A DNA stretch of 64,000 nt from positions 1-64,000 of the forward strand of contig JAVJQW010000041.1 in NCBI GenBank assembly GCA_040218735.1, given 5' to 3'. A model generated the notes under the pieces. The model was not told the DNA's origin. It did no database searches and was given only the letters and a program-made list of their open reading frames with translations. Origin of the DNA: Deltaproteobacteria bacterium. Lineage in GTDB: Bacteria; Myxococcota; Kuafuiibacteriia; Kuafuiibacteriales; Kuafuiibacteriaceae. The translations under genes and the position numbers were made by a program. Below are positions 19,405 to 62,120 of this stretch, one piece after another (position 1 is the first letter of the stretch; every line of letters begins with the position of its first letter).

Positions 19405-21663
19405 CTACAAATCGATCTCGATGTTCCCGTTCGATTCGATGACCCGGATCGTTCGCCCCGAGAACGCAGGGTCTCGCGCCATGCGGACCGCGACGGGCGT
19501 GATCACCTGCTCCTCGATCAGCCGTGCGAGCGGGCGGGCGCCCTGGTCGGGCACGTAGCCGAGCGTCGCGAGGCGCCGTCGCGCCGCCGCGTCGACCGAG
19601 ATCTGCAGGCGCCGCCTCACGAGTCCGGTCCGCTCCGCGAGGCGGGCGATCAACAGATCGACGATACGCTCCACGTCGTCCTGGGTGAGTCGCTTGAATG
19701 GAACGACGTGGTCGAGGCGCGCGAACAACTCCGGCCGGAAGAACTGCCGCACGTGTTTCGTGAACGAGCCGTCCGTCGGGCCGTCGAACCCCATCGGCGG
19801 ACGCTCGGAGGCGCCGAGGTTCGAGGTCAACACGATCAGCGCCATGCGCAGATCGACGTGGCGCCCGAGGGCGTCGGTCAGCCGCCCCTCGCCGAGGATG
19901 CCGAGCAGCAGATCGAACACCTCGGCGTGAGCCTTCTCGATCTCGTCGAGCAACACCAGCGAGAGCGGGCGCTGTCGAAGCTGCTCCGCGAGGGAGTGCC
20001 GCCCCTGGCCGGCTTCGAGGAGACGCTCCGCCGAGCCGGGCAGCATGTACTCACTCATGTCGAACCGCACGAGCCGCGACGAGCTCCCGAACATGTAGCG
20101 CGCGAGTTGTTTGGCGAGCTCGGTCTTCCCGACGCCGGTCGGCCCGACGAAGAAGAGGCTCCCGGTCGGTTTGTCCGGATCGTTCAGCCCCGCCTTGAAC
20201 CGCGCGAGCACGTCACCGGCGACGTCGCAGGCGGCGTCCTGCCCGATGACCCGCTGCCGGAGCACGTCCGCGATCTGCGCGCCGCGCACCGGGCGTTCGT
20301 CGCTGATCAGCTCCACCGGGAGGCCGGAGTAACGTGAGAACGCTTCGGAGACGTCGGAGGGGTTGAGCGTCCGCGTCTGGTCGCCTTCGTTCGCGAGCCA
20401 GTCGACGAACCGGTAGCCCTTGCCCGGGAAACACGTGCTGCGCTCGAACGCGTCGAGGTGCCGGACGAGGCGCTTCATCCCCTGCGGGTGAATCGTCGTC
20501 TTCGACTTCTTCTTCGCCTGGTAGTCGAGGAGCAGCTCCGGCATCGCCGCCGACTCGACCTCCTCGATGCGGATGACCTGGAACGCGCTCACCAGCGTCG
20601 GCGTACGTCGCCGCGCGCGCTCCAGCTCGGTCTCGGTGCACTCGGCGATCAGGCTGATCTCCTCCGCGACCACCGCCGGGAGCAGTAGCTCCGCGATCGA
20701 CGTCCCGTCGGGTTGCGGCTCGAGGATCGCCGTCAGCCGATCCACGTACAGGTAGTGCCCCTCGTACGAGAGCTCCTCGATGAGCTCCAGCACCCGCTCC
20801 TGCCACATCCCGAGGTACACCATCCCCGCGATGATTCGGTCCTTCGACGTCGCGAGGATCCGTGGCACCGGGGCAAACGTCTTCTCGCGCTCGTAGTACG
20901 CGAGCAGGTGCGCGAGCCGACGCACGAACGTCGTCTTGCCGACGCCCGGTCCGCCCACCAACAGGATCGACGCGGGCGTCGAGCGCTCCAGGAGCGGCCG
21001 GTGCACGAACAGGTCCTCGTACCCGCCGACCACGACCGGGAGCTTCTTGCGCTTCGCGCGCTCGACCCACTCGTCGGCCACCGCACCCACCGCGTCGCCG
21101 TAGTAAGCGCCGTGGTCCTCGGTGGGCGTCGACAGCTTCGTGAGCAGGAAGTCCGGCGACCAGTCGCGCACGTACTCTTCACCTTCGCGGCGGAAGTCGT
21201 AGACCCACCGCGGCTCCTCTCCGCTCAGCGCGGTGGCGACGGCGTGTTCGAGCACCTTCGGCGCGATGTCGAGATCTTCGACCACGAACCACCAGTCGAA
21301 GCGCGGCAACATCACGCGGTAGGACCCGTTCCCCTGCTTCGCCCACGCGTAGGTGAGGCGCAGCGGGATCTCACGTTTGCCGATCACCGGGCGCTTCTCG
21401 ACCAACGACATCGGGTGCACTTCGACGCGCGCGGTGCGGACGTCGAAACGTTGGTCCCAGAGGTAGCGCTTCACGGTGTCGCGGTTGGCGGCGTCGCGTG
21501 AACGGACGATGACTTCGAGCTGGCGCAGGACGTCGTCTTCGTCGACGCCGTACGCGGTGGGCGGCGGCTCGTCGAAGAACCACGACCACGCGCGCACGAG
21601 GATGCCGGTCTTGTGACCGTCGTCGTGCGTGATGAAGTAGACGCGGAGGGTCGGCTTCTTCAT
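19405..21663 (-). CDS. ClpA/ClpB-like double AAA+ ATPase, third gene of the trio
   Basis: Walker A 'GGPGVGKT' and 'GPTGVGKT', D2 Walker B 'LLDEIEKAH', 'GARPL'; ATG overlaps the upstream TGA. Confidence 0.88.
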   Translation of the reverse strand: MKKPTLRVYFITHDDGHKTGILVRAWSWFFDEPPPTAYGVDEDDVLRQLEVIVRSRDAANRDTVKRYLWDQRFDVRTARVEVHPMSLVEKRPVIGKREIPLRLTYAWAKQGNGSYRVMLPRFDWWFVVEDLDIAPKVLEHAVATALSGEEPRWVYDFRREGEEYVRDWSPDFLLTKLSTPTEDHGAYYGDAVGAVADEWVERAKRKKLPVVVGGYEDLFVHRPLLERSTPASILLVGGPGVGKTTFVRRLAHLLAYYEREKTFAPVPRILATSKDRIIAGMVYLGMWQERVLELIEELSYEGHYLYVDRLTAILEPQPDGTSIAELLLPAVVAEEISLIAECTETELERARRRTPTLVSAFQVIRIEEVESAAMPELLLDYQAKKKSKTTIHPQGMKRLVRHLDAFERSTCFPGKGYRFVDWLANEGDQTRTLNPSDVSEAFSRYSGLPVELISDERPVRGAQIADVLRQRVIGQDAACDVAGDVLARFKAGLNDPDKPTGSLFFVGPTGVGKTELAKQLARYMFGSSSRLVRFDMSEYMLPGSAERLLEAGQGRHSLAEQLRQRPLSLVLLDEIEKAHAEVFDLLLGILGEGRLTDALGRHVDLRMALIVLTSNLGASERPPMGFDGPTDGSFTKHVRQFFRPELFARLDHVVPFKRLTQDDVERIVDLLIARLAERTGLVRRRLQISVDAAARRRLATLGYVPDQGARPLARLIEEQVITPVAVRMARDPAFSGRTIRVIESNGNIEIDL

Positions 21664-24600
21664 CGACGCCTCCGGCTCTTCTCGAGCAACCAACCCGGAC
21701 GCAGCGCGTCGGTGAGTGAACGGGCGTGGTGCACCGTGACCTCCGCGCGGCGGTAGTGCTCGATCTCGAAGCGCGTCGGCCGGTCGGAGTCCTCCGTCAC
21801 CTCGTAGCGCAGCTTCCGCACCGCCGGGAACAAACGGTACGGGCTCGGCGGGAGCGGCGTGTCGCCGCGAACCACCGCCGCTTCGAACGCCTCCTCCTCG
21901 GTGAGGAACCGCGCGACGACGTCCTCGGCCGTGTCACCGAGCGGCGCCGCCCACGCGCTCACGCGGACGAGCTCCGTGCCCGACGCGAGGGACTGCCAGA
22001 CGTGGCTGCCGATCTCCGTCTCGAAGCGATCGAGGATGCCGAGCCCGTTGAGCTCGAGCACCAGGTGCGCCGGGCCGCGGTGCAGCGGCACGGCCTTCTC
22101 GTCGTCGGTGACGCGCGAGACGAGGCGCCCGTCGGTCAGGCGACCGGCGTAGCTCGACAGCTCACCGGGGCCCTCCAGGTACGCCGCGGCGAGGGACTCG
22201 AGCAGGCCCGTGCGGTGATCACCGAAGCGCCCGCGGTGGCGCGCGTGACCGACGCGCAGCAGCTCCACGAAGATCGTGTGCTGGCCGGGTTCGTCGATGC
22301 GCTCGAACGTCCGCCGCAGGAACTCCGCCTCCGCGACGACCTCGAAGATCGCGTCCTTCGTCATCGGGCGCGCGCCCGAGCGGCTGTCGAACATACGCAC
22401 GCGTGAGCGGCCGGGGAGCGAGCTATGCGTGAACGTCGTCGCCTCGATGAAGTCCGGGTCGTTCGGGTTCGCGCTCCGCTTCACCCCTTCGAGGCGGGTG
22501 ATCAGCTCCGTGAGCCTCAGTTTCGCGGCGTCGAGGTGATAGATGTCGTCCGCCGGGTTCGCCGAGCCGATCGCTCGTGAGATGCGATCGTCGAGGCGCT
22601 CCACCCAGCCGTCCGCGATGATGCGCTCGAGCACCTCCAACGCTCCGTCGAGCGCCCCGGCCGTCTCCTCCGCCGTCTTGTCGAGCCACGGCGTGAGCGC
22701 GTAGTCGTCGTCGACCGGCTCCGCTTCCCGCAGCACCGACGCGTCGAGCGTGAAGCCGGACGGGCTCGGGTACACGCGGACGATCTGCATTGACGCCGGC
22801 TCCGAGCGCGTGATGTGGTCGGTGAGCAGCGAGCCGACGTGTTGATCGAGGTAGCGCTGCAACGGCCGCGCGCCGCGCTCCGCGTCGAAGCCCTCGCGCA
22901 CCACGCGCCTCAGCACCGGCTCGCCCGCGAACAAGAAGATGCTCCGCTCGGTGAGCCCGCGCCGCGTCGACAGGCGCGACAGCTCCTTCTCCGCGATCTG
23001 CACCGCGGTCTCCGCCTGCAAGGGGAGGAACGGGACGATGCGATCGATGCGGTTGAAGAGCTCCGGCGGGAAGAACGCACGCACCGCTTCGTCGACCTGC
23101 GCAGCGTCAGCGCGATCGTCGTGCGAGAAACCGACGGCGGGCCGTGCGCGTGCGCCGAGGTTGGACGTCATGATCACGACGGTGTGCGTGAAGTCGGCCG
23201 TGAAGCCGCGCGCGTCCGTGAGGCGCCCTTCGTCGAAGAGTTGAAGGAGCAGGTTGAGCACCGACGGGTGCGCCTTTTCGACTTCGTCGAGGAGCACGGT
23301 GCAGAACGGTTGGTCGAGCACCGGCTGCGTCAGCATGCCCTCCGGCTGGAAACGATCGCCGACGAGCCGCGCGGCGGCGTCCGGTCCGGACAGCTCGCTC
23401 ATGTCGAGGCGGAGGAGCCGACGTTTGTCGCCGAACAGATACTCCGCGATGCACTTCGCGAGCTCGGTTTTGCCCGTGCCGGTCGGCCCCGTGAACAGGT
23501 ACACGGCGTACGGGCGCTCCGGATCGGTGAGCCCCGCGCGGATGCGCAGCACGACGTCCACCGCCGCGTCGACCGCGTGTGGCTGCCCCATCACGTAACG
23601 CTCGAGCTGTCCGCCGAGGCGACCCGGGTCGAGCTTCTGCTCGGGCTGCAACAACAGGCGCGGAAGACCGGTGCGCGCCGACAGCACCTCGAGGACGGCC
23701 TCGGGCCCGATGCTCCGCTCGCCGGTCGACGCCTCCCTCAGATCGGGCTTCGCGAGCTCGTGCAGCAGGTCGACGGCCTTCCCCGGGAACGCGACCTGCG
23801 AAAACAGCGAGTCGGTCAGCTCGTACACCGTGCGGAACGCGGCCGGCTCGAAGGCGACGGGGGACGCGACCTCGAGCGCGCGCGCCTCGTGGAACATGAT
23901 CTGGTACGTCATCTCCTGTGACGTCGCGTCGACGAAGAGCCGCGTGAACAACGCCGCGAAGCTCGGCGCGTCGTCTTCGAGCTGCGCGAGCTGCTCCGCC
24001 GTGCACTCGCCGATGAGCAGGATCTCTTGCCGCTCGAGCGGCCCGCGGAATGCGTCGGCCAGGCTCCGGTCACTGTCGCGGGTGCGGCCGATGCGACCCC
24101 AGGCCGAGAGATCCTCCGCGTAGAGGATCAGCTTGCGGCCGCGCAGCTCCGAGACGATCGCGTTGACGCGCTCCTCCCACTGCCCGAGGTACGACATCCC
24201 CGCGATGATGCGTTTTCCGCTCGTCGACCAGACCTCGTGGATGCGGTCGAGGTTTCGGTGCGTGGGGAAGTCGTCGGCGTCGACGAGGTCCTTCACGAAG
24301 TGGTTGAAGATCGTCGTCTTGCCGCAGCCCGGCGGGCCGACGAGGAGCACCGGCTTCCGCTTCTGACCGGCAAGGTGCAGGAGCATCGGGTCGCGGTAAC
24401 GCGGTCGCGGTGCGCCGACGGGCAACGAGCCTTCGATCGCGCGCGTCGTCTGGTTGACGCCGATGGACGGGATGGTCGTCAGCCCGCCCTTCTTGCGCTC
24501 CTTCTCCTGCTTCGGTCCGCGTTTGACGACGAGGTCGTCCCACAGGCCGCCTTCGGAGTCGGGCAGCGTGTCGATCACACTCTTGTGATGCGCTTCGAAC

Positions 24601-25085
24601 GAGAAGCTCGTGACGAGGTCCTTCTTGTTCGTGGTGAGCTGATCGAGCGCGAAGTCCTCCAGCTCGGCGAACGCCTTCGCGAAGTAGAGCGCCGCCTGCT
24701 CGTCGAGCGGGCGGTCGTCGTCTACGACGAACCACTTCGCCTGGTAGTCGGGGTGGTAGGCGATCTTCACGCGGCGCTCGCGTGTGACCCAGCGCGGCTC
24801 GGTGACGATGGGGAAGAGGCCGGAGAGCTTGCGGCGCCCGGCGTCCTTGAGCGTGAGCGCGAGGCGGGTGCGCGCTAGCGCGATGCCGCGCGGTGCGAAC
24901 AGCTGCGACGCGCGCTCGGCGGAGCACTTCGCGATCGCTTGGCGCAGCGTGACGGTGAGCTCGCGTTGGATCTTGAGCGCGGTCCGGCCCTCTTGGCGCC
25001 GGTTGAGATCGCCGAGCCCGAGGGTCTGCCAGGTCAGCGAACCGGAGGCCTTCGTCTGGTAGATGGCGACGCGGAAGGTGCTCAC
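21660..25085 (-). CDS. ClpA/ClpB-like double AAA+ ATPase with C-terminal release-factor-like extension, second gene of the trio
   Basis: 'GPPGCGKT', 'GPTGTGKT', 'LLDEVEKAHP', 'GARPL', followed by about 330 extra aa. Start placed at GTG 25085 (GTGA overlap) rather than the called 25580. Confidence 0.85.
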   Translation of the reverse strand: MSTFRVAIYQTKASGSLTWQTLGLGDLNRRQEGRTALKIQRELTVTLRQAIAKCSAERASQLFAPRGIALARTRLALTLKDAGRRKLSGLFPIVTEPRWVTRERRVKIAYHPDYQAKWFVVDDDRPLDEQAALYFAKAFAELEDFALDQLTTNKKDLVTSFSFEAHHKSVIDTLPDSEGGLWDDLVVKRGPKQEKERKKGGLTTIPSIGVNQTTRAIEGSLPVGAPRPRYRDPMLLHLAGQKRKPVLLVGPPGCGKTTIFNHFVKDLVDADDFPTHRNLDRIHEVWSTSGKRIIAGMSYLGQWEERVNAIVSELRGRKLILYAEDLSAWGRIGRTRDSDRSLADAFRGPLERQEILLIGECTAEQLAQLEDDAPSFAALFTRLFVDATSQEMTYQIMFHEARALEVASPVAFEPAAFRTVYELTDSLFSQVAFPGKAVDLLHELAKPDLREASTGERSIGPEAVLEVLSARTGLPRLLLQPEQKLDPGRLGGQLERYVMGQPHAVDAAVDVVLRIRAGLTDPERPYAVYLFTGPTGTGKTELAKCIAEYLFGDKRRLLRLDMSELSGPDAAARLVGDRFQPEGMLTQPVLDQPFCTVLLDEVEKAHPSVLNLLLQLFDEGRLTDARGFTADFTHTVVIMTSNLGARARPAVGFSHDDRADAAQVDEAVRAFFPPELFNRIDRIVPFLPLQAETAVQIAEKELSRLSTRRGLTERSIFLFAGEPVLRRVVREGFDAERGARPLQRYLDQHVGSLLTDHITRSEPASMQIVRVYPSPSGFTLDASVLREAEPVDDDYALTPWLDKTAEETAGALDGALEVLERIIADGWVERLDDRISRAIGSANPADDIYHLDAAKLRLTELITRLEGVKRSANPNDPDFIEATTFTHSSLPGRSRVRMFDSRSGARPMTKDAIFEVVAEAEFLRRTFERIDEPGQHTIFVELLRVGHARHRGRFGDHRTGLLESLAAAYLEGPGELSSYAGRLTDGRLVSRVTDDEKAVPLHRGPAHLVLELNGLGILDRFETEIGSHVWQSLASGTELVRVSAWAAPLGDTAEDVVARFLTEEEAFEAAVVRGDTPLPPSPYRLFPAVRKLRYEVTEDSDRPTRFEIEHYRRAEVTVHHARSLTDALRPGWLLEKSRRRR

Positions 25086-28000
25086 GACGCAAACCCCACT
25101 TCCCGATCCAGCGGGCCGACGAACAGCGTGTCGCGGTCGAGGTCGATGTCGTTCTCGTAGACGAGGAGGTGCGCGAACGCGACGCGCTCGAGGTGGCGCC
25201 AGTACACGTCGGTCGCGACCGCGAAGGACTTCTCGGTGCGGAAGACGGTGAGCCGATCGTGCACGCCGTCGTGGGTGCGGATCACCGGGAGCGAGGTGCG
25301 GAGGGTGTACGTCGCCTTCGCCGGGAACATCGACTCCTTGGTGAACAGCTCCTCCTTCATCGCGTAGCGCATCGAGACGAGCTCGACGCCCAGCTCGGTC
25401 TTGTCCGTCTCGCGCCGAGGTTTCTCGAAAAGGTGTCGTCCCGCCTCCGCGGCGAGGAGCCCCCCGGCGTACGTCCCGGCGACGCGCACCAGGATCGTGC
25501 GCGGTTTGCTCGGCTGGGCGAGGCGCGCGCGGGTCTGGTCGGCGTTGCGCGGCGGCCCCCACGAGCTGAGGCCCTCCCACAGGTCGCTGTTCTTCTTGGG
25601 CTCACCCCAGAAGTGACACGTCACCTCCCAACCGCGGCGTTCGAAGTCGTCGAGGGCGTGGGCGAGCCACAGCTCGGCGGCGCGGCCTTCGTCGAGCTCC
25701 GTGAGGCGGAGGGTGATCGCGTCGCGGTGCTCCTGTCCGACGAGGAGCAGGAACACCATCCGCGCGGCGAGCGCCTCGTAGGCGGCTTCGGCTTCTTCGA
25801 CGGCGCCGTCCACGTCACCGCCGGTGTAGAGCGCGCCGACGGCGAGCTCTTCGGCGACGATCAGATCGTCCATGCACCGCTGCACGTGTTCGACCGCCTC
25901 GGCGTAGCGGTGCTCGGCGCGCATGAGCTCGGCGCGCTCCTGCGTGGTGCGTTGGTCGGCGTCCTTCGCGTCGACCTGGGAGAGCTGTGACCTGAGGTTC
26001 GACAGCTGCTCGACCGCCTCGACGACGGAGTCGAGGTTCATGTGTCGGTTCGCGATGCGCCGCAGCTGCGCGACTCGTTCGGTGCCGGACAGGTCGCGGT
26101 TGTCGACCGCCGCGCGCCCCGAGAACAGACGCAGGGTGAGGGGCCCCCGCTGCGTCGTCATCAGCGGCTTGGACTTCTTCTTCTCGGAGGGCTCCGACTC
26201 CAGGCTCGCGACGACGCTGGCGCGACGTGCGTCGGCCCCCGCACGCGCGAGGAGCCGAGCGATCGGCGCGACGAGCTCGTCCTCCAGCACGCGGCGGATC
26301 GCGCGCGCGCCGTAGATCGGTGAGTAGCCGTCCTCCGCGAGCCGCGCGAGGGCGGCGTCCGTGACGGACAGCGAGATCGACAGCTCGGTGAAGCCGCGAC
26401 GCTTCGTGATCTTCGCGAGCGCGACTCGCGCGACGGCGAGGATCTCCTCCTGCGTGAGCGGGTCGAACGCGATGATGCGGTCGAGGCGGTTGACGAGCTC
26501 GGGCCGGAAGTTCCGCTGCACCTCGCGTCGGTAGTGCGCTTCGTCGGTGAGCGTCGGGGCGTCGAGGCCGATCGCCTTCGGACGGTGCGACGCGCCGAGG
26601 TTGCTCGTCATGATGATGATCGCGTTGTGGAAGTACGCGGTCTTGCCGCGTGCGTCGGTGAGGCGTCCTTCGCCGCAGACCTGGAGCATCAGATCGAGCA
26701 CGGCGGGGTGGGCCTTCTCGATCTCGTCGAGCAGCAACACGGAGAACGGCTGCTGGCGGATCTTCTGGGTGAGGAGGCCCTCCTTGCGGTCGGTGCCGCG
26801 GATCAAACGCTCGGCGGCGAGCGGGTCGGCGTACTCGCTCATGTCGAACCGCACCATGCGGTCGGGCGCCTGGAAGAGGAACTTCGCGAGGGTGCGCGCG
26901 AGCTCCGTCTTGCCGACGCCGGTGGGGCCGATGAAGAGGAACGTCGCGAGCGGTTTTCCGCTCGGCTGCAAGCCGGCTTTCACGACGCAGATCGTGTCGA
27001 CGACGCGCGCGACGGCTTCCTTCTGGCCGATGATGTTGCGCTCGAACCGCTCCACGACCTCCTGTTTGTCGAGCGCGCGATCTTCCCGGAGCAGGAAGCC
27101 GGGGATTCCGGTCTGGCGGCTGAACGCGTCGAGCACGCGGGGGCCGTCGATGGGGTGCGGGCGTCCGCGTTCGTCGACGTCGCGCTCGTAGATCGCGCGC
27201 AGCTCACCGTAGAGGCGCATCACCTTCCCCGGGTTGGGTTGGTAGACGAGGTAGCGCTTCGTGAGGTCGAGGACGGTGTCGATCGCGTCGTCGGTGAGGG
27301 TGGGGCGATCGGGGGTGACGGTTCGGTCGTGATCGACCCGCGCAACGAGGGCGCGCCGCGTCGACCGGTCGTCGAGCGCGTCGACGCGCAGTCGCGTGAA
27401 ACACGAGAAGAACCCCACCGCGCGGTCCTCCAACGTGGAGAACGCCGCGGGGGTGATCTCGCCGAGCATCCGCACGCGGCCCGCTTCCAGGTACGGCTTC
27501 ATCGCGTTCGGCAGATCGATCGAGCCGGTCGCGCGGTCGTGGAAGAGATCGCGGAGGTCGTCGATGTACAGCACCGCGTCGAGCTGCTCGGCGGCTTCGA
27601 GCACACGCCGCACGCGCTCTTGCCACTGCCCGAGGCCGCTCATCCCCGCGACGAGCTGCGCGGCGGAGGTCTGGTAGACCATCGGTTTGTCGTCGCCGCG
27701 GCTCCGAAGCCACGCGTAGAGGACCGCGCTCTTGCCGACCAGCTCGTCGCCGAACAGGAGGAGGTTGATGCGCGCCTTCCCGGTGAGGAGCGGGGTGAGG
27801 CTGTCGACGAGGCGATCGCGCCCGACGATCGGGGGGCCGGCGTGGGCTTCGGGGCGTTCGTGAATCGCGATGCCGACGGAGTCGAGCACCTTCTTCGCGT
27901 CGCGCTTCTTGTTGCGCTCGATCAGGCGCTTCTTCAGCGAAGCGGCGCGTCCGGTGGGGAGGCGGTCCTCCCGATCGACCGGGACTTCGAGGGTCTCGAT

Positions 28001-28462
28001 GCGGCTCGTCTTCGCGGGGAAGAAGTGCCGGTACGTGTCGAGCTCGACGAGCTGCGCGGTGGCGACGCGTTGGATCTCGTCGCGGATCGCTTCGCGCCGG
28101 TCTTCCTTCTTCGACACGTGGAAGGTGTGTCGCAGCCGCGGGACGATGACCCACGCGTCCCCGTTCGGCTGACCGAGGAGCACGGTGTCGAAGTGGAGCG
28201 GGTCGACGATCTGTAGTGGGCGCGGGAGATCGTCGCGCTCGATCACCACCTCGACGTCGAACAGCTCGACGTCCTTCGGCATGGAGAACCGCGCGAGCGT
28301 CGAGGCGTCGGTCGTCGCGAGGTACGCCTCGAGGTACGCCTGCTGTTCTTCGAGCACGTGCGCGGGCGTGCCGAGCGAGGACTTGTCGAGGTCCGCGATC
28401 GGGAGCGCGAGCGTGCGCCCGTCGAACCCCTCCTCGAGGAGGAGGCGCACGGTGAGTTTCAT
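25082..28462 (-). CDS. ClpA/ClpB-like double AAA+ ATPase with C-terminal release-factor (PCRF)-like module, first gene of the trio
   Basis: 'GDELVGKS', 'GPTGVGKT', 'LLLDEIEKAHP', 'GARAI'; tail 'ILVRVAGTYAGGLLAAEAGRH..VIRTHD'. Start at 28462 or 28486. Confidence 0.85.
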   Translation of the reverse strand: MKLTVRLLLEEGFDGRTLALPIADLDKSSLGTPAHVLEEQQAYLEAYLATTDASTLARFSMPKDVELFDVEVVIERDDLPRPLQIVDPLHFDTVLLGQPNGDAWVIVPRLRHTFHVSKKEDRREAIRDEIQRVATAQLVELDTYRHFFPAKTSRIETLEVPVDREDRLPTGRAASLKKRLIERNKKRDAKKVLDSVGIAIHERPEAHAGPPIVGRDRLVDSLTPLLTGKARINLLLFGDELVGKSAVLYAWLRSRGDDKPMVYQTSAAQLVAGMSGLGQWQERVRRVLEAAEQLDAVLYIDDLRDLFHDRATGSIDLPNAMKPYLEAGRVRMLGEITPAAFSTLEDRAVGFFSCFTRLRVDALDDRSTRRALVARVDHDRTVTPDRPTLTDDAIDTVLDLTKRYLVYQPNPGKVMRLYGELRAIYERDVDERGRPHPIDGPRVLDAFSRQTGIPGFLLREDRALDKQEVVERFERNIIGQKEAVARVVDTICVVKAGLQPSGKPLATFLFIGPTGVGKTELARTLAKFLFQAPDRMVRFDMSEYADPLAAERLIRGTDRKEGLLTQKIRQQPFSVLLLDEIEKAHPAVLDLMLQVCGEGRLTDARGKTAYFHNAIIIMTSNLGASHRPKAIGLDAPTLTDEAHYRREVQRNFRPELVNRLDRIIAFDPLTQEEILAVARVALAKITKRRGFTELSISLSVTDAALARLAEDGYSPIYGARAIRRVLEDELVAPIARLLARAGADARRASVVASLESEPSEKKKSKPLMTTQRGPLTLRLFSGRAAVDNRDLSGTERVAQLRRIANRHMNLDSVVEAVEQLSNLRSQLSQVDAKDADQRTTQERAELMRAEHRYAEAVEHVQRCMDDLIVAEELAVGALYTGGDVDGAVEEAEAAYEALAARMVFLLLVGQEHRDAITLRLTELDEGRAAELWLAHALDDFERRGWEVTCHFWGEPKKNSDLWEGLSSWGPPRNADQTRARLAQPSKPRTILVRVAGTYAGGLLAAEAGRHLFEKPRRETDKTELGVELVSMRYAMKEELFTKESMFPAKATYTLRTSLPVIRTHDGVHDRLTVFRTEKSFAVATDVYWRHLERVAFAHLLVYENDIDLDRDTLFVGPLDREVGFAS

Positions 28463-28582
28463 GGCGCTGTCAGGACCGGACGACACGTCGGACCGCCACC
28501 TTTAGCAGGGCCCGGGGTGCGTGCCGAGGCCCTCGCCGCCCGGGGCGTGGCGACGAGGGCCTGGCTGCCCGCGTTTCGCTGT

Positions 28583-29422
28583 CTACTGCGGCGCGCCGCC
28601 CTGGCCGGACAGCTCCATGAACTTCGCGGAGACCGCCTCGGCGACCTCCGGTCCGAGCTTTTGGAGGTCCTCGGGGCCCTGGACGCCGTTGTCCTGCAGC
28701 ACCTTCATCAGCTCGTCGACCGAGCCCGCCTGCTGGATGGCCTGCATGATCTGGTCGGCGCCACCGCCGGCCTCACCGGCCGCTCCGGCCTCGCCCGCAC
28801 CGCCGGCCTCTTCGCCGCCGCCGCCTGCGCCCATGGCCTGCTGCGCCATCTGCATCAACTGGTCGAGGAGGCCGCCGCCTTCACCGCCGGCGCCGCCTGC
28901 GCCCTCGGCGCCGCCACCGCCGCCGCAGTTGCCGCCGGGGCACCCGCCGCCCGCCGCCGCGCCGCCGCCGCCGTCACCCGCCGGAGCCGGTCCGCCCGCC
29001 GCCGGTGCGGCCTGCGCCGGCGCCGCCGCTTGGGCCGGTGCCGCCGCGCCCGCGGGGGCCGCAGCGCCCGCCGCCTGGTTCGGGTTCACGGGGCCCTGTG
29101 CGCCGCCGCCGCCGAGGCTGTTCTGCAGCTTCTTGAGGCCGGCGTCGTCGAGCCCGAGCTGCTTCTTCACCTTGTCCGGGTTGTTCTTGATCTGATCGAG
29201 CAGCCGCTCCTTCCGCGCCGGGTTCTGGCCCAGCTTCTTCGCGAGCTTGTCCGGGTTCTTCTGCGCGAGCTGCTTGAGGTTCTGCTTCCCGCCGAGTTTG
29301 TTCTTCCCGCCGAGCTTGTTCTTCCCGCCGAGTTTGTTCTTCCCGCCGAGTTTGTTGCCACCGAGGTTCTTGCCGCCGAGCTTGGGGCCCTTGGCGAGAC
29401 CGCGCGCTGCTCCGAGTACCAT
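28583..29422 (-). CDS. Low-complexity Gly/Ala/Gln-rich protein
   Basis: 279 aa, strong AAGGAAAAGGA RBS region, Lys-rich repeated N-terminus, Gly-rich middle and helical C-terminus. Confidence 0.75.
   Translation of the reverse strand: MVLGAARGLAKGPKLGGKNLGGNKLGGKNKLGGKNKLGGKNKLGGKQNLKQLAQKNPDKLAKKLGQNPARKERLLDQIKNNPDKVKKQLGLDDAGLKKLQNSLGGGGAQGPVNPNQAAGAAAPAGAAAPAQAAAPAQAAPAAGGPAPAGDGGGGAAAGGGCPGGNCGGGGGAEGAGGAGGEGGGLLDQLMQMAQQAMGAGGGGEEAGGAGEAGAAGEAGGGADQIMQAIQQAGSVDELMKVLQDNGVQGPEDLQKLGPEVAEAVSAKFMELSGQGGAPQ
29285..29356. repeat. Coding tandem repeat, 4 x 18 bp (encodes NKLGGK)
   Basis: cttcccgccgag(t/c)ttgtt x4, with degenerate copies continuing to about 29383. Confidence 0.95.
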
Positions 29423-30821: not shown

Positions 30822-33800
30822 ATGGTGGCTGCCTCCCTCGCCGTCGTCTCGACCCTCGCGATCGTCGGTGCCCCGCCCCAAGCCGCCCCGTCCGACGCCG
30901 TTCGCGCCCGCTGGCTCGCCATCACGTACGAGCTCGCCGCGGACGATCCGGCGCGCCGGGAGCGCGGCGCGGCCGCCGCCGGGCTCACCGGGTCCCCGTA
31001 CTTTCTCGACCCCTTGCGCGCCGCCCTCCACGACACGGCGCCCGGTGTTCGACGCGCTGCGGCGACCGCCCTCGGCGCCCTCGGCGTCCCGCGGACCTCC
31101 GACGACCTCGTCCACCAGATGGACGCGCTGTTCGAGGCGGCGGAGGACACGGATCTCGCCACGGCCCACGCCGCGGTCCAGTCGCTCGGACGTTACCCGT
31201 TCCTCAGTGTGCGCCAGCGGCTCGTCGAGCTGTCGACCGATCCGCGTCCGCCGATTCGCGCCGCCGCGACCCAGGCGCTGTCGGCCCGGCCCGGGGACGA
31301 AGCGCAGCGCAGGCTCGCCGACTACTTCGGCATGACCCAGGCCGAGATCGCCGGCGAGGTGCGCGCGGACGATCTTCACCTGCGCCCCCTCCTCGGCGCC
31401 GCGCGTGTCCTGCTCTCCGAGACCCGCTCGACCAAACCGGCCGCCGCGCAGACCCTCGCCGGGTGGGCCGACTTCGAGGAGACCCGTCCGCTCCTCATCC
31501 GCGCGCTCGCGGAGCCCGACGCCCCCGTTCGTGCGACCGCCGCCAAGGGGCTCGGTCGTGATCCGGATCCCGCGGCGAGCGCGGCGCTCGTCCGTTCGTT
31601 GAGGGACCCCGACGACGCCGTGCGACTGCAGGCGATCGCCGGGCTCGCCTCACGCGACGAAACCGCGAAGGCGCTCGCCATCCACCTCGCGCGCGAACCG
31701 TCCGCCGCGCTGCGCGTCCGCGTCGCGCGCGCGCTCGACGGCCTCCCCGAGGCGCCGACCCTCGCGGGCATCGCGGCGTGGCCGCACCAGACCCCGGCGT
31801 CCTCGATGCGCCTCGCGGTCGACGTCCTCGAAGCCAAGACCTCATCGGCTTCGACGCAGGCGCTCGTCGATGTGTTCATGCGGGCACGCGCGCCGAGCGT
31901 GGTCAGCGCCGCCAAGGAAGCGGTCGCGCGTCGCAGCGACGGGGCGACGGTGCCGCCGCTCCTCGGTCACCTGCACTACACGAAGCCGAGGACGGAGCGT
32001 CGCCGGCGCATCGTCGAGGCCCTCGCGAAGCGCACCGACCCGCGCGTGACCGAGGCGCTGCTGGGACTCGTCGCGGCCGGGGAGGTCGACGGACAGACGA
32101 TCGCGGCGCTGCACAGCCGACCCGAAGCGCTCGTCCGTCCACGGCTCCTCGAGCTCGTCACCAGCGATCGCGCGGGCGTCCGTCGTGCCGCGCTCGAAGG
32201 CGTCCGCGACTACCGCGGCGAGGACGTCGCGGACGCGCTCGGTGCGGCGGTGAAGAAGTTCCCGAACGACGAGGTCGCGTTCGATCAGCTCCTCGAACAG
32301 GACAAGGCCCTCACCCTCGGGACGCGCGTCGCGTTGCTCGAGGAGCCGACGCATTCGCATTTGCACCGTGGGCTGTTGCTCTCGATTCACGACGCGGTCG
32401 ACCCCGCGATCCCCGGCGCGGTCGTGCAGGCGACGCAGCGCGACCCGAAGCTCGCGCCGCTCGCGCTCGAGATCCTGGACCGCCAGGCCGACGCGGAGTC
32501 GGCGGGTGCGCTCTACGCTATCGCTGCCGACGAGGCGGTCGCGGACTCCCACCGCGCGAACGCGGTGCGTCGCATGGCGAAGCTCGAGGATGCGTCGATC
32601 GAGTCGAGGCTCCGTCCCCTCGCCAACGACGAGGCGCTCGTCGTCCGCATGACCGCGCGCAACGCGCTGCACGATCTCCAACCGCAGACCTACCCCGCGT
32701 GGGATCCGTACGGGCGCGTCCCGCTGATCGTCGAAGGCGCGGCGTTCGGCGCGGGCATGATGCTCCTCGCCACCGAGATCGCGGACGCCGATCTCTCCCC
32801 CGCGTTCACCGGCGGCGTCGGGATGTTGCTCGGCGGCGCGACGCCGTTCCTCCTCACCCTCGAAGAGGACGTCACCCTCGGCGACGCCGGCTACTTCGGC
32901 ACGATGGGGCTGTGGGGCACCGGCGCCGGTTACGGTCTGGGGAAGCGCCTCGGCGTCTCGGAGTCGACGACGCTGTGGCTCACCGTCGCGGGTGAAGCCG
33001 CGGGCATCGCGGCCGGCTCGCTCGGGATGAAACGCGTAGAGTGGGGGCTCGACGACGTCGCGCTCGCGAACTTCACCGCGGTCGAGTCCGCGATCCTCAC
33101 GGCCGGCATCACGGCGCTCGCGCGACGCAACGCGGACGACCGCGGCGCGTCGGCGATGGAAGCCGGCCTCATCGGCGGCGCCGTCGGCACGATCCCCATG
33201 GCGTTGTTCGCGCGCCGTCTGAAGATCTCGCACGAGCTCCCCCTCGCGGCGACGGCGATGACCCACGGCGCGTGGCTCGGCATGTGGGCGCCAGCGGTCC
33301 TCGAAGGTGAGCTGTCCGCCTCCGACGCCGCGGCCGGCGCTTTGGTCGGCCAGAGCATCGGCTACCTCACGGCGCTCGGCCTCGCGCAGTTCGTCTCGCT
33401 CGACGGCGAGACGGCGGCGTACTCGGGCTTCGGCGCCGCAACCGGCGCCGCGATCGGTGGGGGCCTCGGGCTCGTGCTCGACAATCGATCGACGGCGACC
33501 CGCGTCGGGCTCCTCGAAGCGGGCTCCGCGGTCGGTGCGCTCACGCTCGCGATCGTCGGGCCTTCGCTCGAATGGAACGAGAACGACGCGACGATCGTCG
33601 CGCTCGCCGCGCTCGGCGGCGCGATCAGCGGCGGGCAGCTCAGCGTCCGCCTCGAAGAAGGCACCTTCGACGAACCGGCGTTCCCCGGCGGCATGTTGAT
33701 GGGTGCGGGCATCGGTACCGCCGCGGGCATCGTCGCGAGCCAGCTCGTCGACGTCTCCGACAAGTCCCTGACCAACACCCTCGTTGGTGCGGGCGTCCTC

Positions 33801-36800
33801 GGCGCGGGTGGCGTCGGGCTCGGGTACCTCGTCGGTGACCTCGACGTACGCGCGCGATCCAACATCTCGGGCGCAGCGATCGGGCTCGGGCTCGCGATGA
33901 CCTATCCGCTCTCCGACGCGCTCGCGCTCGAAGGGAAGGACTACGCGTACGCGGGCGTCGGGGCCTCGCTCGGCGGACTCTACGGCGGCTTCGTCCCGGT
34001 GTACTTCGACGGCGACGCCGCTTCGAGCCAGATCGCGGGCGGCGTGGCGCTCGGCTCTGCGGTCGGCGGCTACGGCGCGGCGATCGCTTCCCACTGGCTC
34101 GACCTCTCCGCGAAGCGCGTCGCAGTGACGTCGTTTTCGTCGGTCGCCGCGTCCTCCCTCGGCGCGGGCCTCGGTCTGTTGATCCCCAGCGCCTCGGACG
34201 AGCTCACCGTGGGCATGATGCAGGGCGCCGGCTTCGCGACCTTCGCGACACTCTCCGTCCTCCTCTCCAACAAGGGGCTCTCGTTGAAACGCACCGACCG
34301 CGTCGACCCCGGCGGTGAGCTCGTGATGGCCGCGGCGATGCTCGGTGCGCAGGGGGCGTTCCAGGGCGGCCTCATCCCGTACATGTGGAACGGCGACGGC
34401 CCGCCCGCATCCGAAGTGACCGGTGGCGTAATGGTGGGCGCGAGCGCCGGCGCGCTCGGCGGCCTCGCGCTGCACTACATCTCGAACGAACCGATCGAAG
34501 GGGGCCACCTCGTCGAAGCCTCCCTCCTCGGCGTCGCCGCGAACGGTCTCGGCGCGGGCCTCGGGCTCGTCACGCAGAGCCGCCGCACGGGTGCGTCGTT
34601 GATGCAGGGGCTCGGCCTCACCACGTACGTCGGCGCGCTCGCGCTCGCGCCGCGCACGAACTACGACGAACGCGCACCCGCGACCTTCTTCACCAGCTCC
34701 CTCACGCTCGGGTGGCTCGGCGGTTGGGCGCCGATGCTCCTCGACGATCCCGAGAGCTCGCAGGTGATCGGTGGCGCGCTCGCGGGGAGCAGCGCCGGTG
34801 TGCTCGGCGCGGTCGCGCTCGTCGAGCTGTACCCGCGGCGCGACGACGTCGAGATCGCCGCGGGCACCGCGATCGGCTCCGGCCTCGGCGCGGGGCTCGG
34901 GTTGATGATCGATCGCGACGCGACACGCGGCACCGTCGCGCTCCTCGAAGCCGGCGGTCTGCTCGGCCTCGGCGCGGGCCTGGCGCTCGGCCCGGTGACG
35001 ACCTACGACGACGGCGACCGCGCGCTCGCCGCCTACGGCACACTCGCCGGCGGCGCCTTGGGTGGCTTCCTCCCCCGCACGTGGACCGACGAAAACGTCG
35101 ACACCGCGGGCGGCGCGCTCTTCGGCGCGAGCCTCGGCGCGGCGGTCGCGATGACCACGTCGCAGTTCGTCACCGTGGATCCCAAGGACGTCGTCGAGAT
35201 GTCGATCTACACGAGCGCGATGAGCACCGCGGGCGGCGGCATCGCGCTCCTCGCCGACCTCGACTCCCGGCAGAGCGCGCTCGCGTTGGAGATCGCGGCG
35301 CTCGGCGGGGTCGCGCTCGGCGCGGTCGTCGCGCCCTACACGAAGTACGGCTTCGACGAGATGTTGTTCGCGATGGAGACCTCGGCGGTCGGCGGCGCCC
35401 ACGGCGCGCAGCTCGGGATGCTCCTGGAGGATGAAGCCGGCGGTTCCTTCCTCGGCGCGAGCGCTGGTCTGCTCGCGGGCGCGCTCGTCTCCCAGGTCGC
35501 GGACGTGAAGCCGACGTTGATGCTCGAGGCCGCCGCGTTCACTGGCGTCGGCGATCTCTTCGGCTACGGCATCGGCCGCCTTGCGACCGACGATCCCAAC
35601 GGCCAGCGCGCGTGGATCGGCGGGCTCGGTCTGTCGGCGTACACACTCGGTCTCGCGGTCGGACCGTTCACCTCCTATGAAGCCGAGGACTACCTCACGA
35701 TGACGCTCGCGTCGGGCGTCGGTGCGTGGCACGGCGCGTGGCTCCCGGCGCTGTTCGCTCCGGAAGGCCCGATCGATCGCGACCGCGCGGGCGCGGGTGC
35801 TGCCGTGGGCGCGGCGTCGGGGGTGTTGCTCGGCGCGGTGACCTCGCAGTTCGTGGACGTCCCCGTCGACGTGCAGGTCGAGATGACCGCGGGGTGGGCG
35901 ACCGGGTCGGCGATCGGCGCGGGGCTCGGGCTGTTGCTCCCTAGCGTGGACCGCAAGGGCACGATCGGTCTGATGCAGGGGGGCGGCGCGCTCGGCCTCG
36001 CCGCGAGCCTCGCGCTCGCCGACTCGCTCGAGTACGAGGCGGGCGATGCGCTGTTGGTGCCGGCCGGTGCGGCGGTCGGCGCGGCGGTGGGGCTCACGCT
36101 CCCGGCGTTGATCCTCGATCCGAACGATCCGATCGGCGACAACCCGCGCGCGGGCGGTGTGTTGCTCGGCGCGGGCATCGGCACCATCGCTGCGGCGACG
36201 GCGGCGCAGTTCGTACAGATCGAAGCGGGCGACGTCGCCGAAGCGAGCGCGGCGTCGATGCTCGGCGCGGCGACGGGGCTGGGCGTGGGCATGATGATCC
36301 CCGGCTCGAACCGCCGCGGGCGATTCCTGAGCATGGACCTCTTCGGCGTCGCGGGGCTGGGGCTCGGGACCTGGCTCGCCCCCAAGATGGACGTCGACGA
36401 GGACGCCGTGATGTCGATGGCGCTCGGTAGCACGCTGGGCGGATTGGCGGGCGGGTTCACGCCGAGTCTATTCAATGGACCGAACCTGGAAGACATCCCC
36501 GGCGAGCAGGCGGGCGGCGGTGTCCTCGCGGGCGTCGGCCTGGGCGCGGCGACGGGGCTGCTGCTCGACCAGACGCTGGAGCTCGACGCGACGACGCGCG
36601 AGCACGCGGCCTACGGCGCCGCGATGAGCGGGATGGCGGGCGCGGGCTTCTCGATGTTGGCGTCGGAGGATGACCGGTGGCTGTCGGTGATGGGGCCCTC
36701 GATGGCGATCGCGGGGGCGTTCGCGGTGGGCGCGACATCGAAGCACGCCTCGTACGACGCGGGGGACCTGGCGTTGGGCTCCGCGTACGTCGGGTACCTG

Positions 36801-37478
36801 ACGTGGCACGCGATGGGTTTGACGCTGCTGTCGGACGGGACGAACCGGCAGGCGGCCGGCGTCGCGATGGGGACGGTGGGCTTGGGCGCGCTCACGGGCA
36901 TGTATCTGACGCCGTACATCGACCTCACGATGTCCGACGTCCTGATGCTCACCGCGGGCAACGTGTGGGGCACGTGGATCGGCGGCTGGGGCGGCGTCGT
37001 CCTGCGCGAGCAGCTCGACGGCGACTTCGACGGCCGCCGCGGCGCGGGCCTCACGCTGCTGACGAGTGTGTTGGGATCCGACGTGGGCCTCGCCGTGACG
37101 GGGATGGTCGTGGGTGGGTTGTTGGACGTGGAGCCCACGCGCTTCGCGGTGATCAATCTGTCGGGCCTGGGCGGCATGATGGTCGGGATGCTCGCGGCGG
37201 GCGCGCTGGATGACGAGCCGCTGCGAACGGGGAACGTGCTGGGGAGCCTGGGTGGGTTGGTCGTGGGGGCCGTGGTGACCTCGTTCTTCGATTGGAAGTC
37301 ATCGCCCACCTGGGACGAGTTGCTCGGGGAGGACGAGGCGAAGGCCGCGGAGGCGAAGGCGCCTTCTGGGAAGAGTGGGCTGGGGGTGCAGGAGTGGTTC
37401 CCGGGGGCGCGGATCGAGCCTACCGAGGATGGGGCTGGGGAGCGGTACTTGTTCACGATCGGGGGGACCTGGAACTGA
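30822..37478 (+). CDS. Giant secreted/membrane protein: HEAT repeats plus a glycine-zipper-type hydrophobic repeat region
   Basis: 2218 aa; signal peptide; HEAT-like repeats ('VRRAAATALG', 'VRATAAKGLG', 'VRLQAIAGLA') in the first ~620 aa; then ~1550 aa of GxxxGxxxG hydrophobic repeats; ends 'YLFTIGGTWN'. Confidence 0.85.
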   Translation: MVAASLAVVSTLAIVGAPPQAAPSDAVRARWLAITYELAADDPARRERGAAAAGLTGSPYFLDPLRAALHDTAPGVRRAAATALGALGVPRTSDDLVHQMDALFEAAEDTDLATAHAAVQSLGRYPFLSVRQRLVELSTDPRPPIRAAATQALSARPGDEAQRRLADYFGMTQAEIAGEVRADDLHLRPLLGAARVLLSETRSTKPAAAQTLAGWADFEETRPLLIRALAEPDAPVRATAAKGLGRDPDPAASAALVRSLRDPDDAVRLQAIAGLASRDETAKALAIHLAREPSAALRVRVARALDGLPEAPTLAGIAAWPHQTPASSMRLAVDVLEAKTSSASTQALVDVFMRARAPSVVSAAKEAVARRSDGATVPPLLGHLHYTKPRTERRRRIVEALAKRTDPRVTEALLGLVAAGEVDGQTIAALHSRPEALVRPRLLELVTSDRAGVRRAALEGVRDYRGEDVADALGAAVKKFPNDEVAFDQLLEQDKALTLGTRVALLEEPTHSHLHRGLLLSIHDAVDPAIPGAVVQATQRDPKLAPLALEILDRQADAESAGALYAIAADEAVADSHRANAVRRMAKLEDASIESRLRPLANDEALVVRMTARNALHDLQPQTYPAWDPYGRVPLIVEGAAFGAGMMLLATEIADADLSPAFTGGVGMLLGGATPFLLTLEEDVTLGDAGYFGTMGLWGTGAGYGLGKRLGVSESTTLWLTVAGEAAGIAAGSLGMKRVEWGLDDVALANFTAVESAILTAGITALARRNADDRGASAMEAGLIGGAVGTIPMALFARRLKISHELPLAATAMTHGAWLGMWAPAVLEGELSASDAAAGALVGQSIGYLTALGLAQFVSLDGETAAYSGFGAATGAAIGGGLGLVLDNRSTATRVGLLEAGSAVGALTLAIVGPSLEWNENDATIVALAALGGAISGGQLSVRLEEGTFDEPAFPGGMLMGAGIGTAAGIVASQLVDVSDKSLTNTLVGAGVLGAGGVGLGYLVGDLDVRARSNISGAAIGLGLAMTYPLSDALALEGKDYAYAGVGASLGGLYGGFVPVYFDGDAASSQIAGGVALGSAVGGYGAAIASHWLDLSAKRVAVTSFSSVAASSLGAGLGLLIPSASDELTVGMMQGAGFATFATLSVLLSNKGLSLKRTDRVDPGGELVMAAAMLGAQGAFQGGLIPYMWNGDGPPASEVTGGVMVGASAGALGGLALHYISNEPIEGGHLVEASLLGVAANGLGAGLGLVTQSRRTGASLMQGLGLTTYVGALALAPRTNYDERAPATFFTSSLTLGWLGGWAPMLLDDPESSQVIGGALAGSSAGVLGAVALVELYPRRDDVEIAAGTAIGSGLGAGLGLMIDRDATRGTVALLEAGGLLGLGAGLALGPVTTYDDGDRALAAYGTLAGGALGGFLPRTWTDENVDTAGGALFGASLGAAVAMTTSQFVTVDPKDVVEMSIYTSAMSTAGGGIALLADLDSRQSALALEIAALGGVALGAVVAPYTKYGFDEMLFAMETSAVGGAHGAQLGMLLEDEAGGSFLGASAGLLAGALVSQVADVKPTLMLEAAAFTGVGDLFGYGIGRLATDDPNGQRAWIGGLGLSAYTLGLAVGPFTSYEAEDYLTMTLASGVGAWHGAWLPALFAPEGPIDRDRAGAGAAVGAASGVLLGAVTSQFVDVPVDVQVEMTAGWATGSAIGAGLGLLLPSVDRKGTIGLMQGGGALGLAASLALADSLEYEAGDALLVPAGAAVGAAVGLTLPALILDPNDPIGDNPRAGGVLLGAGIGTIAAATAAQFVQIEAGDVAEASAASMLGAATGLGVGMMIPGSNRRGRFLSMDLFGVAGLGLGTWLAPKMDVDEDAVMSMALGSTLGGLAGGFTPSLFNGPNLEDIPGEQAGGGVLAGVGLGAATGLLLDQTLELDATTREHAAYGAAMSGMAGAGFSMLASEDDRWLSVMGPSMAIAGAFAVGATSKHASYDAGDLALGSAYVGYLTWHAMGLTLLSDGTNRQAAGVAMGTVGLGALTGMYLTPYIDLTMSDVLMLTAGNVWGTWIGGWGGVVLREQLDGDFDGRRGAGLTLLTSVLGSDVGLAVTGMVVGGLLDVEPTRFAVINLSGLGGMMVGMLAAGALDDEPLRTGNVLGSLGGLVVGAVVTSFFDWKSSPTWDELLGEDEAKAAEAKAPSGKSGLGVQEWFPGARIEPTEDGAGERYLFTIGGTWN

Positions 37479-58969: not shown

Positions 58970-59415
58970 CGCTGAGGTTCTTCAACGGGCTGCAGATCGA
59001 CGTCCCGAAGGGGTGGACCGATCTGTCGACGGTGATCATCGCGCCGAAGAAGGACGTCGCGCAGGGCGACCGGCCTTCGATCAACCTCGTGGTGAAGCGG
59101 CGCCCCGCCAAGAAGAAAGAGGACGCCGACACGCTGAAGTCCTACCTGTCGTTCATGCGGCAGAGCTTCGGCGAGCTGCACGACCTCGAGACCAAGGACC
59201 TGCTCGTGGGGAACACACGCGCGAAGGCGGTGCGCTTCAAGGCGTACGCCGACGGGCGCTGTTTCACGCAGACCACGATGCTCTACACATCGGCGGGGGA
59301 CGAGATCTCCGCGACGGTGACCCAACTCGACGAGGATCCGACGACCGCGAAAGAGGTCGAGAAGCTCCTCAAGTCCATTCGCCCCGCGGCGGGTGGTGTG
59401 TTCGGAATCAAGTGA
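58966..59415 (+). CDS. DcrB/DUF1795 (PsbP/Mog1-fold)-like protein
   Basis: 149 aa; 'IDVPKGWTDLS', 'PSINLVV', terminal helix 'EVEKLLKSIR'; GTG overlaps the giant gene's TGA. Confidence 0.6.
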   Translation: MTLRFFNGLQIDVPKGWTDLSTVIIAPKKDVAQGDRPSINLVVKRRPAKKKEDADTLKSYLSFMRQSFGELHDLETKDLLVGNTRAKAVRFKAYADGRCFTQTTMLYTSAGDEISATVTQLDEDPTTAKEVEKLLKSIRPAAGGVFGIK

Positions 59416-59428
59416 AGGAAGCGACGAG

Positions 59429-62119: not shown

Positions 62120-62120
62120 G

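Follow-up and report, generated by a model that had tools for sequence, protein, structure and literature searches.

Bacterial Clp/Hsp100 ATPases are regarded as homohexamers whose substrates are recognized by way of Clp-N domains and adaptor proteins. Heterohexamers with a dead D1 ring are known among other AAA+ systems, Pex1/Pex6 for example, and serve here as an analogy only. We describe a trio of consecutive genes, designated A, B and C, in contig JAVJQW010000041.1 of the deltaproteobacterial assembly GCA_040218735.1, positions 1 to 64,000; this whole 64,000-nucleotide stretch is called the window. The products resemble ClpA, the partner of ClpP, in that their two AAA+ domains are spaced as in ClpA without an M domain between them, D2 is intact and an IGF-type loop is present, but differ from it in lacking Clp-N and the GYVG loop, in an apparently dead D1, in a HicB-fold head, in a tail derived from release factor RF2 (A and B only), and in occurring as three paralogs. 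Very probably the trio assembles as one heterohexamer, with 2:2:2 the probable stoichiometry. The features of the locus are as follows.

28462-25082, minus strand: gene A, 1126 aa, with two HicB-fold units, dead-looking D1, active D2 and RF2-derived tail
27872..28462, minus strand: tandem HicB-fold region at the N-terminus of A, aa 1-197 by profile envelope (E 3e-33), fold assigned by homology to C
26228..27865, minus strand: double AAA+ core of A, about aa 200-745, with ClpA-like spacing, no M domain and an IGF-type loop
25127..26209, minus strand: tail of A, corresponding to RF2 domains 1, 2 and 4 and having neither domain 3 (GGQ) nor SPF
25082..25085, minus strand: four-base overlap GTGA of the A stop and B start
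25085-21660, minus strand: gene B, 1141 aa, with HicB-fold units, dead-looking D1, active D2 and RF2-derived tail
24459..25082, minus strand: tandem HicB-fold region at the N-terminus of B, aa 2-209 (profile E 4e-34)
22773..24374, minus strand: double AAA+ core of B, about aa 238-771
21672..22766, minus strand: tail of B, a more diverged RF2-derived module whose link to RF2 is transitive, via the family profile
21660..21663, minus strand: four-base overlap ATGA of the B stop and C start
21663-19405, minus strand: gene C, 752 aa, with HicB-fold units, D1 and D2, and no tail
21028..21663, minus strand: tandem HicB-fold region at the N-terminus of C, units at about aa 4-84 and 95-175
19417..21066, minus strand: double AAA+ core of C, about aa 200-749

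An earlier note on the window, made from the letters alone, had described the GTGA and ATGA overlaps, and both are present in the open reading frame (ORF) coordinates. The D1 loops it quoted (AGM[SV]xLG[QM]W[QE]ERV), its D1 Walker B variants (YIDD, YAED and YVDR) and the segments replacing the D2 GYVG loop (RLIRGTDRKEG, RLVGDRFQPEG and RLLEAGQGRHS) are likewise found in the translations. Reading frames are intact and lengths conserved, so that interpretation of the genes as pseudogenes or frameshift fragments was rejected. Over the AAA+ core, A, B and C share 33-36% mutual identity, and profile searches with Pfam and NCBIfam place two tandem Clp-type AAA+ domains in each. The ClpA model TIGR02639 is the top NCBIfam match for A and B and the second for C, with scores of 276-314 against a cutoff of 993; all three proteins score far under the cutoffs of the curated equivalog models for ClpA, ClpB, ClpK, ClpG and TssH (about a third of the cutoff for ClpA and ClpB). 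Assignment as the ClpV of a type VI secretion system was rejected because of these low scores and because no such context was found, except for a separate canonical Clp at locus L245. Pfam returned no Clp_N match for A, B or C, and heads and tails taken singly gave nothing at E <=0.01. Because the same layout recurs in several phyla, the architecture of the trio is not a product of chance.

Used as a query, the first 330 residues of C retrieve 456 homologous proteins, and all taxon-named ones among the 120 matches listed are from Myxococcota. The family was collected more widely by scanning a degenerate D1-loop pattern over GTDB genomes, which gave at least 142 stretches; flanking sequence was obtained for 80 of these pattern loci, 11 of them without a Clp-like gene. 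The gene order long-long-short is complete in 24 of 49 de-duplicated loci, and the complete examples span Myxococcota, Planctomycetota, Acidobacteriota, Verrucomicrobiota, Spirochaetota and Bradymonadales. By FastTree, 109 family rows form a single clade separate from six canonical Clps. B sequences from the different phyla group together in one clade (support 97). Those of A and C are spread over several clades, whose basal branching the tree does not resolve.

The number three is kept even where the operon is not. A profile of the head was searched against 28 whole genomes, most of them picked for a seemingly incomplete locus, and matched 25, comprising 21 with three genes (one of these gives four matches, two of them in one frame), two with two, and two with one. 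Three Sorangium genomes have C some 10 Mb away from A and B, and in five Bacteroidota metagenome-assembled genomes (MAGs) the three genes occur at separate places. Two phyla, both named in the neighborhood survey that the earlier note had proposed, were also sampled. For Myxococcota, an even draw of 301 genomes had 77 positives: 69 with three matches, four with four, one with six, one with two, and two with one. For Planctomycetota, ten of 201 genomes were positive, nine of them with three matches. In the order of a Saprospiraceae MAG, the center genome was the only one of 151 to give a strong match. Distribution of the family is patchy, and mostly in large genomes. Single-gene forms, which the earlier note thought might predominate if its view were wrong, are a minority: within one Chloroflexota family 5 of 65 genomes have them, and a single Actinomycetota MAG does so too; sets of three are the common state. 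In M. virescens, B and C are naturally fused as a protein of 1892 aa.

Because exactly three genes are kept even where dispersed, the near-constant set argues for an obligate heteromer. The earlier note had proposed a heteromer, and the copy number, the position-specific clades and the natural B-C fusion point the same way. Several variants were seen in passing. The six matches in one genome of the Myxococcota survey (G015) seem to represent two different trios; a deltaproteobacterial MAG has a tail of about 300 aa on its third gene as well (L169:12659-15712); and A and B of one Sorangium are separated by a Ser/Thr kinase gene (L244:4794-7085).

A motif census of the two rings covered 32 A, 40 B and 38 C sequences, with six canonical Clp controls. 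The D1 Walker A lysine is kept in 106 of 108 members. None of 31 A and none of 40 B sequences has the D1 Walker B glutamate, and in C it is not among the four commonest residues (32 of 38). Both D1 arginine fingers are mostly lost across the family, and a new glutamate beside D1 sensor 1 is conserved in 101 of 110. From these motifs, D1 looks able to bind nucleotide and dead for hydrolysis. All six catalytic positions of D2 are invariant; its Walker A and B are intact, as the earlier note had stated, and so are sensor 1, the arginine finger and sensor 2. It is thus highly likely that D1 is a nucleotide-bound scaffold and D2 the sole motor. The distance between D1 and D2 Walker A motifs, median 274-280 aa compared with 393-401 in three controls, shows that there is no M domain.

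The earlier note was also right about the missing GYVG loop, which occurs in 0 of 108 trio members vs. 6 of 6 canonical Clps, the D2 loop being about five residues shorter. Several features had escaped it: the RF2-derived tails of A and B, which are the best pointer to function, the ClpP-docking loop, the loss of the D1 arginine fingers, and the aromatic residues in C (D1) and B (D2). All 38 C sequences have a tyrosine or phenylalanine at the D1 pore, as do 26 of 40 B sequences and 4 of 30 A sequences. In D2, 31 of 39 B sequences carry a short substitute loop, constant in length, with an aromatic residue at its center. At the locus described here, A has no aromatic pore residue in either ring, B keeps the D1 tyrosine and has the substitute D2 loop with its aromatic residue, and C keeps the D1 pore tyrosine. 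Such complementary aromatics are the pattern expected of a specialized mixed ring, and suggest that substrate grip has been divided among the subunits rather than lost. A permissive pattern detects the IGF-type loop, used for docking to ClpP, in 105 of 108 members vs. 2 of 6 canonical controls, and it is this motif that suggests coupling to ClpP. We consider coupling to ClpP, with threading by a reduced set of pore loops, rather likely. The genome encodes two strong ClpP matches elsewhere, plus ordinary Clp ATPases.

In place of Clp-N, the earlier note had proposed two small HicB-type units. An alignment-based model of C residues 1-198 (predicted local distance difference test, pLDDT, 91) has two units, each of three strands plus a helix, and units 1 and 2 are homologous to each other (probability 94%, vs. 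no more than 0.6% in 20 shuffles). Of the top five structural matches of this model, four are entries for HicB and the other is a related, putatively RNA-binding protein; scores from the wide VIA search are in the middling range (Z 5.0-6.2, root mean square deviation 3.0-3.6, 68-80 residues aligned). The best PDB sequence match of the head profile is TTHA1756 (E 0.03). One Chloroflexota member passes the Pfam cutoffs for HicB and UPF0150, and 1 of 94 heads matches singly. Foldseek with the head model found nothing at E <=0.001, and an Atlas search with head A gave no usable match. Ordinary Clp_N heads were rejected, there being a HicB-fold model and no Clp_N match, and the proposal of the earlier note is supported by the structure, profile and Pfam-member matches. 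The heads thus resemble the N-terminal fold of HicB/UPF0150 antitoxins in their two tandem units, but differ in being fused to an ATPase, in lacking a DNA-binding domain, and in having no conserved adjacent toxin gene. They would act as substrate-binding or RNA-binding domains that replace Clp-N. Complex prediction with the three head domains scored 0.74, vs. 0.70 for a control with chain C replaced. Elsewhere, in Chloroflexota, small genes for a HicB fold, each about 100 aa long, immediately precede toxin genes that look PIN-like from their sequence (L317, L318, L322 and L326); the head profile, or its unit 1, matches these stand-alone genes, while Pfam searches with 50-aa stretches of them found no match.

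Proteins A and B have about 350 additional C-terminal residues, and C has none. A profile built from 72 tails and compared with known structures matches RF2 at E 1e-19 and RF1 at E 2e-17 to 2e-5. It aligns only to residues 9-204 and 310-362 of E. coli RF2, with the middle missing. When rows from the window are omitted, the profile still recovers both tails, A at E 4e-41 and B at E 6e-30, as well as the RF2 encoded in the same genome, at E 7e-17. Compared with RF2 (Pfam PCRF, PF03462, plus RF-1, PF00472), the tails have a homologous domain 1 helical bundle and domain 2/4 core, but lack domain 3 and its GGQ motif, do not conserve the SPF loop or the helix-5 tip, and sit behind an AAA+ ring. GGQ occurs in 0 of 222 tails, the linker from domain 2 to domain 4 has a median of 49 aa vs. 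124 in RF2 (about 75 residues shorter), and a loose pattern for the SPF/PxT stop-codon loop hits 3 of 222. The tails are therefore an RF2-derived module from which the GGQ domain was excised and the codon-reading loop lost, and which cannot release peptides. Taken singly, 5 of 72 tails match PCRF in Pfam, the least diverged members passing the cutoff. An Atlas search with tail B returned PCRF clusters (best score 0.85, a lead only); a word-based homolog search with tail A, an insensitive method, found two proteins; and a single-sequence fold of tail A had a mean pLDDT of 42, too low for use.

Four loci of other Chloroflexota (L352, L353, L354 and L355) encode a single-gene Clp fused to a full-length, dead RF2. 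The HicB head is missing from them, its place in L355 being taken by a repeat region. In this type of fusion the GGQ loop is mutated, and BLAST against the genome's RF2 gives E 1e-16 over about 340 aa; two of three headless fusions fall outside the HicB-bearing clade. A plausible history would start from an RF2 fused to a ClpA-like ATPase, a fusion that next acquired the HicB head and shed domain 3 and was finally triplicated.

Among 3090 flanking ORFs, no conserved neighbor was found beyond one 10-locus cluster, four members of which were scanned and are Ser/Thr kinase-like or unassigned; 117 of 243 predicted flanking genes scanned in NCBIfam are a mix of unrelated housekeeping genes. Expression data come from Myxococcus. 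The Myxococcus set clusters with ABF91057.1, which is MXAN_4823 (Table S1 of PMC11423568), followed by MXAN_4824 and MXAN_4825, all annotated only as ClpA/B-family proteins. As reported in a chloramphenicol study (PMC6617876), MXAN_4823-4825 rise by log2 3.57, 2.67 and 2.61 after 8 h, and by 1.47, 2.17 and 1.92 in adapted cells. The trio is among 101 genes up in both conditions; MXAN_4832 (ClpC) is up only at 8 h. As a link to translation, this induction is suggestive only.

Our best reading, offered tentatively and at somewhat less than even confidence, is a ClpP-coupled heterohexameric unfoldase aimed at stalled translation complexes. A, B and C would assemble into a mixed hexamer, probably 2:2:2; the ring would dock on ClpP through its IGF-type loops; the RF2-derived arms would bring it to stalled translation complexes; and the ring would extract bound protein or nascent chain for degradation by ClpP. 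Whether the ribosome is the docking site we regard as evenly balanced, the view being suggested by the ancestry of the tails together with the one expression study. A more specific version is rather doubtful: a bacterial ribosome-quality-control machine, in which a Clp hexamer of three subunit types would use four release-factor-mimic arms to couple stalled ribosomes to ClpP. The same version, held equally loosely, would make the trio a bacterial analog of Cdc48-based extraction, arising when a dead RF2 was fused to ClpA and the subunits were then triplicated and specialized. In Cdc48-Vms1 ribosome quality control, and with Dom34, an AAA+ motor is linked to a release-factor-like protein (PMC6514570), but that system is eukaryotic, its release-factor fold is non-homologous, and Vms1 is a separate protein, so the comparison is one of analogy only; the accessible text of that article has no occurrence of Clp, HicB or PCRF. 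A literature search from which subscription journals were largely missing found no account of an RF2-Clp fusion or of the trio beyond ClpA/B annotation.

A number of observations weigh against this reading. The tails are poorly conserved (12% mean column identity), with only a glycine, an E-x-G-x-H motif and one arginine at 89% or more, all of which may be purely structural; a true A-site binder should keep conserved rRNA contacts, and the low conservation therefore counts against A-site binding. A profile of 18 B tails from the subclade of this locus barely reaches RF2 (E 0.055), and the tail profile misses the M. xanthus B tail. That species' trio belongs to a sister subclade, and the chloramphenicol study (PMC6617876) is small, with three samples and 625 genes up at 8 h. 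Neighbor clustering and scans found no translation gene or clpP as a conserved neighbor. A dead RF2 paralog, plastid PrfB3, is described as an mRNA stabilizer (PMC5897788). For the family as a whole, 71 of the 77 positive Myxococcota genomes come from one family and are hence not independent, and conservation figures for the D1 loop are partly circular because that loop served as the search pattern.

Among other explanations, an integrated decoy trap survives best, although we consider it unlikely. Here RF2-like arms and HicB-like heads would bait proteins that attack translation, such as RNase toxins of the HicA/VapC type or inhibitors that bind release factors, and pass them to ClpP off the ribosome. 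Fast evolution of both heads and tails, the patchy distribution in mostly large genomes, and the match of head unit 1 to small HicB-fold genes before apparently PIN-like toxin genes all suit such a trap. Against it, trio loci show no defense-island context, toxin partner or conserved neighbor; no cognate toxin gene recurs beside the trio in neighbor clustering or scans, although ORFs under 80 aa were outside the clustering. PADLOC, a check the earlier note had suggested, gave only generic AAA (D2) matches, DolB and PDC-M37B, with no system-specific models or partner genes, and matches to viral contigs, at 26-37%, are confined to the AAA core. Strict retention of three genes after dispersal better suits a stable, housekeeping-like complex.

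An RNA-directed remodeler, in which the dead RF2 module would bind structured RNA outside the A site and the ring would remodel ribonucleoproteins or ribosome assembly intermediates, is improbable. PrfB3 provides the precedent, an RF2 paralog in which both SPF and GGQ have disappeared and which binds at the 3' end of petB (PMC5897788), but it is a stand-alone mRNA stabilizer with no ATPase. The head fold also resembles dsRNA-binding domains, weakly (Z about 4). Against it, the tails carry a net negative charge (median -8), the family retains the loop for docking to ClpP, and no RNA partner was identified.

The earlier note's own version, that the trio is not a classical threading disaggregase, would make it a non-threading heterohexamer serving as an ATP-driven scaffold or switch, for example an activator or gate of ClpP. 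Deletion of GYVG in every member, the dead D1, and the absence of aromatic pore residues from A favor it, but the claim was overstated. It is weakened because pore aromatics are complementary between subunits, persisting at D1 in every C sequence (38 of 38) and in the fixed-length D2 loop in most B sequences (31 of 39); the D2 catalytic residues are all invariant and the ClpP-docking loop is nearly universal, and we judge this version quite improbable. Three separate homo-oligomeric paralogs with independent jobs, or plain redundancy, are highly improbable: single-gene forms in Chloroflexota and one Actinomycetota MAG make a homo-oligomer possible, and the genes can be dispersed, but single losses would be expected, and yet no more than 3 of the 77 Myxococcota positives and 1 of the 10 Planctomycetota positives have one or two copies, while complementary motif loss, translational coupling and the B-C fusion all tie the three together.

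In the window, the trio is flanked by a PAP2 phosphatase gene and by ORFs without a family match. The gene just upstream of A (28583-29422, minus strand) has a Lys/Gly/Asn-rich repetitive N-terminus and no family match, and related trios do not have it as a neighbor; the stretch 28400-28700 showed neither a sigma-70 promoter nor a terminator. At 30822-37478 (plus strand) is a 2218-aa HEAT-repeat protein, and long antisense ORFs over it are probably shadows. At 46646-63650 (plus strand), a 4107-aa midasin/dynein-like multi-AAA protein with vWA domains is followed by three genes, encoding 149 aa, a Clp-type ATPase of 881 aa whose D1 loop is unusual in containing Cys and whose GYVG is intact, and 510 aa without a family match. 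This group may be a bacterial midasin-like operon.

The trio family appears to break the Clp norm. It looks like a heteromer for which all three genes are obligate, in which the first ring is dead, the pore loops are divided between the subunit types and a release-factor mimic is built in. If the trio does work on ribosomes, bacteria would have a further, new way to rescue translation. Should its target lie elsewhere, the family still offers a natural test of the minimum set of pore loops for a threading motor. The presence of MXAN_4823-4825 in the genetic model Myxococcus xanthus DK1622 makes the family testable at once.

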